Below, in pieces: positions 38,373 through 40,330 of a stretch of 64,000 nt of DNA. The notes beneath the pieces were generated by a model that saw only the letters and a program-made list of their open reading frames with translations, was not told the DNA's origin and did not search any database. The position numbers were made by a program, and so were the translations under genes. Position 1 is the stretch's first letter, and every line of letters begins with the position of its first letter. The stretch is from Candidatus Thorarchaeota archaeon. GTDB taxonomy: Archaea > Asgardarchaeota > Thorarchaeia > Thorarchaeales > Thorarchaeaceae. The stretch spans positions 24,129 to 88,128 of the forward strand of contig PRDH01000019.1 in the NCBI GenBank assembly GCA_003345545.1, in the 5' to 3' direction.

Positions 38373-39224
38373 CTATGCATTCTTGACCTCTGCTTTACCT
38401 TCGAGAATTGCCCTCCTGATAATCTGAATCAGGCGGTCTCTGTATGAGATATCGATGGCCACGAGTTCATATGTTGCTACGCCAAGTATCTGTCCCACTC
38501 GTTCAGGGGTCAGAGCAGTTGGAAGGTCTTGCTTATTGGCTATGCCAATTACCTTGGCATCAGGAACCTCATCTTTTACGAGAGACACGAGTTTCTTGCT
38601 TCTAAGCACATTTTCCAAGGTGCTATCTGTGACTATCACAACAACCTGTGCGTTCGCAATCATCTTTGCCCATAGGATACTGAATCTTGACTGTCCTGCG
38701 AGATCCCAGAGTACGATGTTTGCATTGCTAATCTCTTCCGGCAGTTTCTTGATGCTAACACCAATAGTCGGATCATGGACTAGGGGTAGTGTTTCACCTC
38801 TCAAGAGATGAAGTGTCGTGGTCTTTCCAACCCCTGCAAATCCCAAGATTGCGACCTTCACCATCGTGACAGCGATTTCATCAACTTTCTCATCGAATCC
38901 TGCTAATGACTGATTCGCTAGGGCCAGATTCGAATAGTCTCTCAGGAATGAATCGACAAGTTGCCCCATCTTTTCCTCTATCTGTGTAGCATCATCGGCC
39001 TTGTCAGCCACGAATATGAAGGTGAAGGGTTCTCTCTGGGAGTAGAAAATTCTTGAGCCTGCAACGTTCATGAATTCCGTCTTGCTCTCCAGTTCCATAG
39101 TCTTTAGAAAATGTGTTAGATTGACTAAGAACTCAACAAGATCCGCTCTTGTTTCGCTCTTTGTGTACTCCTTTGAGTAAATCATGTTCTCCTGTTCGCC
39201 AAGTACATAGACACCGCGGATCAT
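38373..39224 (-). CDS. Longin domain fused to Arf-like small GTPase
   Basis: N-terminal MIRGVYVLGEQENMIYSKEY (sigma-adaptin/SRalpha-like longin start); G1 GFAGVGKTT, G2 PTIG, G3 WDLAGQ, G4 NKQDL. Confidence 0.9.
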   Translation of the reverse strand: MIRGVYVLGEQENMIYSKEYTKSETRADLVEFLVNLTHFLKTMELESKTEFMNVAGSRIFYSQREPFTFIFVADKADDATQIEEKMGQLVDSFLRDYSNLALANQSLAGFDEKVDEIAVTMVKVAILGFAGVGKTTTLHLLRGETLPLVHDPTIGVSIKKLPEEISNANIVLWDLAGQSRFSILWAKMIANAQVVVIVTDSTLENVLRSKKLVSLVKDEVPDAKVIGIANKQDLPTALTPERVGQILGVATYELVAIDISYRDRLIQIIRRAILEGKAEVKNA

Positions 39225-40330
39225 TTCGCTTCACCCCAAGTCTTCATGAGGAGTTCGAGATGCCTGCGTGCGGCCTCGGGAGTTATCTCTTTCGTTGATA
39301 GCTTCTTATCGATGATGGGCAGCACATATTCCGGCATGAATGGTTGAATTTTGGGATTCGTCAATAATGCCCACAAATCGTCTTGGTCAAAGTGCAGGGC
39401 AACTTTGTCTGTTTCTAAGGCCCGTAGAACCTTCGTCACGACAGATAGTGGAAGAGCAGTATTTCGGGCAATATCTGCAGGAGAGAGTACTTGGTTTCTC
39501 AGTGAGGCAAGTACTCTATACTGAAGCCTCTCTGACAGTATTTTGGAGATCTTCTCTCTGTCTTCAAGTATAGGTGAGTTAGGATCATCTTCAGGCAACG
39601 TTGGATTGTAGCCCTTGCTGGGTGGGGCTGGCGAAAAGAACTCTGATACATATTCCATGTATCTCTGTGCTATCTGTGGCGTCGTTTCCTTCGCCTTCTT
39701 GATTGCATCCATTGGTGGCTCCCGATAACCAACGACGTCCTTCACAAGAAAGACAATTTCGGAAGTCTTGCCAAGAAGTTCCACTGTCACAACACCCGAC
39801 TGGATGAGGGGTGCCATTGCCTCCCGCAAGTCTACTTCATCTTGAATCTCGTTCTTTAGCCAGAGCGACAGTTTTGCAGCTTTCTCAATTCCCTCTGTCT
39901 GCATCCGCTCCAGTAGGAGTGCTGAAGATGGAGTAAGGAAAATCTCTGCGAACTGCTGTTCCTCAGTAAGGTCTTTGAGAACACTCCGACTCTCCAAGAT
40001 CTCCTCTAGGGAGAATGCTTTGGGGTCTTCGCTGATTAGAGCCAATATCAGTCTACCTGAGCCCGCAAGTTCGCCACGCAAGAGATCGACATTCTCATCA
40101 GGACGAAGAACGCTGCAAACCATCCAACCTGGATAGAGCGCAGAGGCGTAAGTTGCGATCTTCATTCCTTCGATTTCAGAGTAGCTTAATTCCTCCTTCT
40201 TTTCCTTCTCCTGCTCGTAAAAGATGAGGTTGAGCACCTTTTCATTAAGCGAGAATTTTGAAGGGTATCTCTGGGTGACTAAGAACCCCTGAATATCGTC
40301 CAAGTGGACTACGAACGTTGCCTCTGGCAT
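39221..40330 (-). CDS. uDENN/longin-like domain plus two winged-helix domains
   Basis: TFVVHLDDIQGFLVTQRYP start; wHTH-like segments ...LREAMAPLIQSGVV and QYRVLASLRNQVLSPADIARNTALPLSVVTKVLRALETDKVA; ATGA overlap with the GTPase gene. Confidence 0.65.
   Translation of the reverse strand: MPEATFVVHLDDIQGFLVTQRYPSKFSLNEKVLNLIFYEQEKEKKEELSYSEIEGMKIATYASALYPGWMVCSVLRPDENVDLLRGELAGSGRLILALISEDPKAFSLEEILESRSVLKDLTEEQQFAEIFLTPSSALLLERMQTEGIEKAAKLSLWLKNEIQDEVDLREAMAPLIQSGVVTVELLGKTSEIVFLVKDVVGYREPPMDAIKKAKETTPQIAQRYMEYVSEFFSPAPPSKGYNPTLPEDDPNSPILEDREKISKILSERLQYRVLASLRNQVLSPADIARNTALPLSVVTKVLRALETDKVALHFDQDDLWALLTNPKIQPFMPEYVLPIIDKKLSTKEITPEAARRHLELLMKTWGEAK

Follow-up and report, generated by a model that had tools for sequence, protein, structure and literature searches.

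A conserved Thorarchaeial gene pair encoding a longin-Arf GTPase and its predicted NPRL2-like binding partner

Introduction

NPRL2 and NPRL3 (Npr2 and Npr3 in yeast) form the longin core of GATOR1/SEACIT, which is a GTPase-activating protein (GAP) for RagA/Gtr1. Npr2 and Npr3 combine a longin domain with tandem winged helices, of which three are described, and the winged helices of NPRL2/3 are protein–protein modules (PMC3521125). The longin-DENN complex C9orf72-SMCR8-WDR41 is a GAP for ARF1. Here, we describe a pair of adjacent genes in a 64,000-nucleotide stretch of DNA, hereafter the window, from a Candidatus Thorarchaeota archaeon (GCA_003345545.1, contig PRDH01000019.1). The pair encodes P0001, whose best structural matches are NPRL2-NPRL3 chains, and P0002, a small GTPase of the Arf type that carries its own longin domain. 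Taken as a whole, the locus is best explained, with moderate probability, as a matched GTPase switch and dedicated binding partner, in which P0001 docks on the switch face of P0002 and a GAP-type platform is the preferred form of regulation.

In longin/DENN GAPs, the catalytic arginine finger is positioned between strands β4 and β5 (bioRxiv 10.64898/2026.01.05.697756). Some Asgard longins of the folliculin/SMCR8 type have a Gly-Pro (GP) motif together with an arginine finger, and C9orf72 is numbered W33-D34...G38-P39 in the same work (PMC12290439). The W33G/D34K mutant of C9orf72 abolishes the GAP activity of C9orf72-SMCR8, and mutations of ARF1 I49/G50 impair it (bioRxiv 10.1101/2021.04.13.439632). 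Two further systems bear on this locus. In one, the SRX domain of SRα is a longin that sits on the switch face of the Arf-like GTPase SRβ. In the other, MglA-MglB, a prokaryotic operon encodes a small GTPase and a regulator of the roadblock/longin superfamily that binds its switch face.

In Asgard genomes, small GTPases and longin or roadblock proteins number in the dozens, and almost none of them has been matched to a partner. AlphaFold2 modelling of the MK-D1 proteome revealed a longin-GTPase architecture whose class was called Rag-like, though close to Arf; in general, the GTPase genes of MK-D1 do not share operons with genes for longin or roadblock proteins, so that matching a GTPase to its regulator is hard (Tran et al. 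2024, PMC10933270). Longin-GTPase fusions were also mentioned by Liu et al., together with an ‘NPRL2-like’ family present in most Thor metagenome-assembled genomes and many NPRL2-like longins elsewhere (2020, bioRxiv 10.1101/2020.10.19.343400). Thus NPRL2-like Thor proteins and longin-GTPase fusions are already published, and what is new here is their conserved pairing; a literature search found no paper describing the P0001-P0002 operon or its interface. As a conserved, coupled and duplicated pair, they offer a GTPase switch already matched to a candidate regulator, together with a prediction of the specific interface and a few residues to mutate. The pair could show whether longins of the NPRL2/C9orf72 type regulated Arf-like GTPases before eukaryotes, and in which direction.

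A coupled and conserved gene pair

The minus strand of the window carries an open reading frame of 369 residues, P0001 (39221..40330), followed by one of 283 residues, P0002 (38373..39224); all features of the two genes given below are on this strand. The stop codon of P0001 overlaps the start codon of P0002 in the sequence ATGA (39221..39224, which reads tcat on the plus strand). A Shine-Dalgarno-like GGGGTGA (39231..39237) lies 6 nt 5' of the P0002 ATG, within the final codons of P0001, and could serve as the ribosome site. The overlap had been noted in the initial annotation and is correct in both coordinates and frames, and the N-terminus quoted there for P0001 is found as stated, MPEATFVVHLDDIQGFLVTQRYP. 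Read from the sequence, the two genes form a putative bicistronic unit that is translationally coupled through the ATGA overlap. Database relatives of both proteins are nearly all Thorarchaeota by label and, for P0002, identities among the best 120 matches are 86–98%.

The coordinates of partner and GTPase matches were compared between genomes. In 65 of the 65 Thorarchaeial genomes in which both were located, an orthologue of P0002 lies 0–15 nt 3' of the partner gene on the same strand. When 16 of these loci were examined by tblastn, the genes abut or are 3–9 nt apart. The same gene order, with a gap of 20–65 nt, is present in 10 genomes from two families labelled Jordarchaeia or Freyarchaeota; proteins of ‘Candidatus Freyarchaeum deiterrae’ are among those so labelled. 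The order is reversed in one further lineage (L028). This pairing is far beyond chance. The matching of P0002 to a partner is given by a conserved, translationally coupled operon, in contrast to the GTPases of MK-D1.

The same genome holds a second, paralogous pair on contig C44 (L052:5631-9209, minus strand). It consists of a 403-residue partner-like protein (L052:8001-9209, minus strand) 5' of a 645-residue longin-Arf-like GTPase (L052:5631-7565, minus strand). The first 290 residues of the latter span the longin and G domains and are 37% identical to P0002; a C-terminal extension of ~350 residues follows. From a reading of coordinates, nearly all of the 30 Thorarchaeial genomes sampled have this second pair on one strand, with 0.4–2.9 kb between the genes. 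The P0001 paralogue in this genome is thus paired with a GTPase of its own. In GATOR1, two paralogous longin-winged-helix subunits form a heterodimer that is bound to DEPDC5. Since the two paralogous pairs both stay linked, there is good evidence for a functional tie between partner and GTPase.

A separate arrangement is seen in a genome from a sister family of the same order (G112, locus L033). Here, a GTPase orthologue that is 58% identical stands beside homologues of the coiled-coil, Cys-rich and Vps22-like neighbours described in the final section. No partner gene was found beside this GTPase by tblastn, the region 5' of the GTPase not having been examined further, and the sole partner-like gene found is on another contig.

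Fold and structural relatives of P0001

P0001 was modelled with AlphaFold2 from an alignment of 40 family members, giving a predicted local distance difference test (pLDDT) score of 89.7 and a predicted template-modelling (TM) score of 0.85. The model comprises, in order, a longin domain (residues 4–101), a winged helix (123–204), a helical hairpin, a poorly ordered linker, a second winged helix (254–331) and two C-terminal helices. A longin followed by two winged helices had been proposed for this protein at the outset, and the model bears this out. The longin domain, taken as residues 1–116 (39983..40330), has the topology β-β-α-β-β-β-α, with strands at 4–11, 15–22, 48–53, 56–62 and 69–75 and helices at 30–42 and 81–101. 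The first winged helix (39719..39964) has the secondary structure H-H-E-H-H-E-E-E, and the second (39338..39571) has an ArsR/SmtB-like fold.

The structural comparison with NPRL2/NPRL3 that had been suggested as a check was run. Foldseek against the PDB placed GATOR1/SEA chains on top, with 8fw5_C first (E 1.1e-4), followed by 9o5a_C, 7t3b_C, 9v0j_A, 9h4q_T, 9o5d_D/C and 7t3b_B. Chains B and C of the GATOR1 entries are presumably NPRL2 and NPRL3, as their lengths fit. The alignments are nearly full length, at 330–490 columns (365–487 for GATOR1 chains B and C), and the TM-score is only ~0.2 because the domains of P0001 are arranged differently from those of the GATOR1 chains.

In the VIA structural comparison of the longin domain, the six best rows are GATOR1/SEA chains of NPRL2 length, with Z 10.8–9.4 over 113–119 residues at a root-mean-square deviation (rmsd) of 2.7–3.1, except for one looser row (173 residues, rmsd 11.3). 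The top rows are the NPRL2 chains 9o5d_D (Z 10.8) and 7t3b_B (Z 10.5), which superpose over 117–119 residues at rmsd 2.7–3.1. Among other longins, Lokiarchaeal 8yqg reaches Z 9.1–10.0 and VAMP7 Z 9.3; TRAPP, Lst4, DENND1A and SRX reach about 9.1–9.3. In addition, NPR2-family clusters were among the matches of a shape search of the ESM Atlas (TM 0.29), while a feature search of the same resource returned unnamed Asgard clusters only.

The second winged helix superposes on CzrA with Z 9.1 over 84 residues and on ArsR with Z 8.6, and structural matches of the MarR/Hpr type cover residues 121–330 (VIA). Consistent with this fold, a profile of the 40 family members against PDB sequences gave weak matches to ArsR-type winged helices only, PH1932 (E 7.4e-4) being among its matches, and phmmer of P0001 against the same sequences gave weak matches to ArsR-type winged helices only. 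Pfam matches to winged helix-turn-helix families at 260–311 were weak and fell under their cut-offs.

The initial annotation had described the NPRL2/NPRL3 architecture in P0001. Its layout and best structural matches stand, and this structural claim is sound because a longin with tandem winged helices is what has been described for Npr2/Npr3. The family-level identity does not follow: NPR2 (PF06218) and NPR3 (PF03666) gave no match to P0001 in Pfam at E up to 1, and P0001 has two winged helices rather than three. Likewise, Pfam and NCBIfam scans of the N-terminal domains of P0001 and P0002 gave no match to longin, NPR2, NPR3, DENN or folliculin families. The longin assignment of both N-terminal domains is thus made from the predicted models. 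When the partner and GTPase families were compared by hhalign, their longins aligned in register with a probability of 0.3, which is not evidence of homology.

The P0001 family is widespread, being found in 206 of the 301 Asgard genomes sampled, often in several copies, and its full-length matches outside Thorarchaeia are 24–30% identical. A search of 1.8 billion representatives gave 106 clusters. Conservation was counted in the columns of the 40-member alignment. The β1-β2 loop of P0001 reads L10-D-D-I-Q-G-F16 (40283..40303), and the family consensus for this region is W-D-[DE]-x-x-G, with [KR]-Y-P after it at positions 21–23. Position 10 is W in 26 members and L in 11, with L in the Thor clade, while D11 is kept in 36, G15 in 39 and P23 in all 40; K/R21 and Y22 are also conserved columns. 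The spacing W-D-x3-G of the family is that of W33-D34...G38 in C9orf72.

P0002 is a longin-Arf GTPase

P0002 is divided into an N-terminal longin domain (residues 1–120; 38865..39224) and an Arf-like G domain (residues 121–283; 38376..38864). Its AlphaFold2 model has a pLDDT of 76.8. The longin has strands at 2–8, 14–19, 50–54, 57–64 and 67–74 and helices at 26–42 and 79–96, and it superposes on VAMP7 with Z 14.5 (112 residues, rmsd 2.6) and on Sec22 with Z 14.4. The claim that the GTPase has a longin domain of its own is therefore supported by the model. Both this longin and that of P0001 begin with a β-strand and have no N-terminal helix. Within the longin, D74 and D77 of an ADKADD motif at the junction of β5 and α2 are invariant in 23 orthologues. 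The 120-residue domain stands where Arf proteins have their N-terminal, membrane-inserting amphipathic helix. The same architecture is found in the longin-GTPase fusions of Tran et al.

Motif alignment, Foldseek and a sequence search of the PDB agree on the Arf-like nature of the G domain. Residues 121–269 match Pfam Arf with 70.2 bits against a cut-off of 22.3 (E 1.9e-19), whereas Gtr1_RagA scores 13.6 bits, which is under its cut-off of 22. Arf1 and Arl1 were the best matches in the PDB sequence search (Arf1 E 3e-15); they also led the Foldseek matches, followed closely by Asgard ArfR structures (E ~1e-9). The G1 (GFAGVGKT), G2 (PTIG, with the switch I Thr), G3 (WDLAGQ, with Q178) and G4 (NKQD) motifs are invariant in the 23 orthologues. 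The G5 region, ELVAID, had been singled out as atypical from the sequence and this is correct, with A256-I257-D258 being invariant in the same set. P0002 is thus a switch with its motifs intact, in which G5 is unusual yet does not vary.

These results separate the pair from GATOR1, to which the initial annotation had likened it. A Rag GTPase has a C-terminal roadblock, whereas P0002 is Arf-like, has a longin at its N-terminus and, in the AlphaFold2 model, has no C-terminal roadblock. What the systems share is that the client of the partner, whether acted upon or bound, is a small GTPase from the Arf/Rag-like branch. Within the presumed platform, the second longin is here found on the GTPase itself. 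MglA also differs, as P0002 is Arf-like and has the catalytic Gln.

The predicted complex

A complex of P0001 and P0002 was predicted in one job, which contained both alignments with GTP and Mg, and was compared with three controls. The pair scored 0.64 and the best of the three controls 0.01. In the calibration set, which unlike the job did not carry GTP and Mg, 58 of the 80 solved complexes attained this mark, as did 2 of the 110 mismatched pairs. Runs agreed in at least 94% of contacts, and the pLDDT of the partner was at least 82. The prediction thus supports the binding of P0001 to P0002, as had been proposed.

Confident contacts link residues 10, 12–16 and 30–42 of P0001 with residues 121, 123, 154–158, 171, 173 and 176–191 of P0002. 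In the predicted interface, the β1-β2 motif loop and helix α1 of P0001 face strand β1, switch I, the interswitch and switch II of P0002. I154/G155 of P0002 belong to the same PTIG motif as I49/G50 of ARF1. This docking surface changes with the bound nucleotide, so P0001 would either read or set the nucleotide state of P0002.

The complex had been expected to form through dimerization of the two longins. Such a dimer is absent from the confident contacts, in which the partner longin meets the switch face of the G domain. Residues outside these contacts are placed with uncertainty, so that the prediction speaks neither for nor against a longin–longin sheet.

The predicted arrangement recalls SRX/SRβ, and the G domain of P0002 superposes on SRβ (2fh5_B) with Z 15.5. 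The likening of P0002 to SRX and SRβ joined in one chain is a fair analogy, although SRX is not the closest match of P0001 (Z 9.1 for 7obq_y and 8.0 for 5ck3_A). The pair also differs from SRX/SRβ in that P0002 lacks a membrane anchor, winged helices are added in P0001 and there is no signal recognition particle context. MglB is less similar, being a homodimeric roadblock protein with an N-terminal helix and, at Z 8.0, ranking below the longins.

Paralogues linked to surface proteins

Elsewhere in Asgard archaea, the longin and winged-helix module is found at the end of very large proteins. Seven family members from other Asgard genomes (P0266, P0284, P0289, P0298, P0303, P0310 and P0315) are single-pass proteins of 1330–2548 residues. 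These have a signal or anchor helix, an ectodomain, one transmembrane helix, a conserved juxtamembrane stretch and, last, the longin and two winged helices. Several have LamG, DUF2341 or Ig-like modules in the ectodomain. The module forms the cytoplasmic C-terminus, ~110 residues past the transmembrane helix, and begins ...MKWDERIGTEILAKYPE. In addition, free-standing paralogues are encoded directly beside, and often overlapping, genes for single-pass proteins of 1300–1585 residues at seven loci (L029, L030, L016, L019, L021, L022 and L026). At three of these seven, all from other Asgard families, the pair of paralogue and surface-protein genes occurs twice in tandem.

As its paralogues are fused to or adjoin giant single-pass surface proteins, the sequences suggest that the P0001 family may function as a cytoplasmic adaptor. 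In Thorarchaeia and Jordarchaeia, this family looks like an adaptor tied to a longin-Arf-like GTPase.

Direction of regulation

The preferred mechanism begins with a bicistronic unit that would encode the switch P0002 and P0001 as its dedicated binding partner, the canonical longin of P0002 taking the place of the usual Arf helix. The β1-β2 loop and helix α1 of P0001 would dock on both switches and the interswitch of the G domain. P0001 would then be the non-catalytic half of a longin-type GAP platform, which is the role of NPRL3, FNIP and C9orf72, and the other half would come in cis from the longin of P0002. Through its acidic winged helices, the complex would be linked to proteins and not to DNA; in the paralogues, these proteins would be the cytoplasmic tails of giant surface proteins.

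This GAP-type platform, with P0001 as the non-catalytic half, is given roughly one third of the total probability. It is preferred because the closest structures belong to the longin GAP clade, because the family motif is C9orf72-like and because a second longin is present in cis. A further reason is the presence of Arg or Lys in the β4-β5 loop of this cis longin in 12 of the 15 Thor-type orthologues. C9orf72 offers a parallel in its mode of contact: it too has an Arf-type client, the family spacing W-D-x3-G, no arginine finger and a loop and longin helix placed at switch II and the interswitch, as predicted here. NPRL2-NPRL3 supply the best matches to P0001, both for the whole chain and for the longin by itself.

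Several points weigh against the GAP-type reading. P0001 itself has Leu rather than Trp at the first position of the motif (L-D...G). The GP motif before β2 is only half kept, as G15 (39 of 40) is followed by F, V, A and others and not by Pro. The β4-β5 loop of the P0001 family (positions 63–68, n=40) has no conserved Arg; it reads SALYPG in P0001, and the commonest family residues are S/T, G, L/P/A, E, P and Q. P0001 therefore differs from NPRL2 in having no Arg at the R78-type position and no Pro after the conserved Gly. Since Gly is kept without Pro and this loop has no Arg, the family, judged from its alignment, resembles the non-catalytic subunits NPRL3, FNIP and C9orf72 more closely than NPRL2 itself.

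A finger supplied in cis by the longin of P0002 is a weak proposition, because the residue in question, R65 in the β4-β5 loop, is Arg in 10 and Lys in 2 of 15 Thor-type orthologues and is neither in any of the 7 Jordarchaeial orthologues. The pair also differs from C9orf72-SMCR8 in having no SMCR8-like subunit with a conserved finger, and from C9orf72 in that winged helices rather than DENN/d-DENN follow the longin of P0001. Furthermore, NPRL2 outscores other longins by ~1.5 Z units at best (VIA), and no longin family was recognised in Pfam and NCBIfam scans of P0001. The binding itself comes from one prediction. Its score may owe part of its pass to a general likeness and not to the affinity of this pair, because the solved C9orf72-SMCR8/ARF1, GATOR1/Rag and SRX/SRβ complexes resemble it. 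Finally, the interface does not separate a GAP from an exchange factor for guanine nucleotides (GEF) or an effector, because all three use the switch face. As neither longin has a conserved arginine finger, all three roles are possible.

The next reading, that P0001 is a GEF, is unlikely but is the strongest of the rivals. P0001 would engage the switch regions when the GTPase is nucleotide-free or in its GDP form and would activate it, as longin and roadblock platforms mostly do (TRAPP, Mon1-Ccz1, DENN, Ragulator), and receptor-linked paralogues would activate a GTPase at the membrane. The absence of an arginine finger from both longins across lineages is in keeping with this, as are the conserved acidic residues D11 and D/E12 of the contacting loop. 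In addition, the longins of DENND1A/B, TRAPP and Mon1-Ccz1 match P0001 with Z 8.6–9.3, within ~1.5 of NPRL2, and a module fused to surface-protein tails suits the logic of a receptor acting through a GEF. However, the longin clade of the GAP type is indicated both by the best structural matches and by the W-D-x3-G motif, and the complex was confidently predicted with GTP present.

A somewhat more doubtful reading treats P0001 as a non-catalytic effector or adaptor that is specific to one nucleotide state, as SRX is with SRβ-GTP, so that the GTPase would control where P0001 and the partners of its winged helices assemble. The matches of SRX chains to the P0001 longin, and of SRβ to the G domain, are those given above. 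The predicted interface, obtained with GTP in the job, is the classical effector surface of Arf, P0001 has no catalytic residues and its winged helices resemble protein–protein modules. Conserved Thor neighbours, namely the Vps22/EAP30-like fusion, the Cys-rich 120-residue protein and the coiled-coil protein, would be possible cargo. Against this, the strictly conserved D11 and G15 in the contact loop recall motifs that are catalytically important in longin GAPs, and 1:1 translational coupling with a GTPase is rare for effectors.

A very improbable reading makes P0001 a transcription factor that binds DNA under the control of the GTPase or of its own longin as a sensor. The ArsR/SmtB-like fold of winged helix 2, its weak sequence similarity and the name ‘predicted transcriptional regulator’ given to some database records by JGI speak for it. 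Against it, the charge of the winged helices is acidic or neutral and their wings are acidic, the family consensus shows no conservation at the recognition-helix positions, the same module lies behind a transmembrane helix in giant surface proteins and the equivalent winged helices of NPRL2/3 are protein–protein modules (PMC3521125). In P0001, winged helix 1 has a net charge of -7 and winged helix 2 one of +1 (family median -2), the wing of the latter reads HFDQDDLW and the pI of the whole protein is 4.9. A DNA-binding role was rejected on this charge and on the position of the module behind a transmembrane helix.

A broader proposal is speculative, and we consider it unlikely. The pair would be a surviving minimal form of the longin-type GTPase regulators from which GATOR1, folliculin and C9orf72-SMCR8 arose, in which the GTPase carries one longin in cis and an NPRL2-like adaptor carries the other. 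In addition, paralogues that are fused to receptors or adjoin them would allow the family to tie Arf-like GTPases to the giant surface proteins of Asgard archaea. If so, the prokaryotes most closely related to eukaryotes would have an outside-in signalling route that leads to a small GTPase.

Neighbouring genes

The gene 86 nt 5' of P0001 (40417-40779, minus strand) encodes a 120-residue, Cys-rich protein with several CxxC pairs and no Pfam match. It is kept 5' of the pair in most Thorarchaeial loci examined and may be the third gene of the unit. Divergent from the operon is a gene for a 784-residue protein (40866-43220, plus strand) that is conserved at this position across Thorarchaeia. A coiled coil and a CarboxypepD_reg-like β domain are present in this protein, and its residues 638–757 weakly match EAP30/Vps22 (E 0.024, under the Pfam cut-off).

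On the 3' side of the GTPase, Thorarchaeia have a gene for a 196-residue coiled-coil protein with a Pro-rich middle (P0350; 36833-37423, minus strand). Jordarchaeia have coiled-coil proteins of 106–110 residues 3' of the GTPase (L018:2775-3107, minus strand; L037:5869-6189, plus strand). The Thor and Jordarchaeial proteins have a D-[FY]-M-x-G-x-I stretch in common. Their pairwise similarity (E 1e-4 in one comparison and no alignment in the other) is too weak, and the coiled-coil protein was dropped as a third gene shared by the two groups.

Between the GTPase and the coiled-coil gene, the window has a gene for a 249-residue membrane protein with an N-terminal zinc ribbon (37512-38261, minus strand). 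It is present in some genomes of the source genus only; elsewhere the GTPase is followed directly by the coiled-coil gene. In Jordarchaeia, a gene with a phosphoribosyltransferase domain lies directly 5' of the partner gene on the same strand (L018:5356-5994, minus strand; L037:3096-3752, plus strand), and its products are 51% identical between the two genomes.

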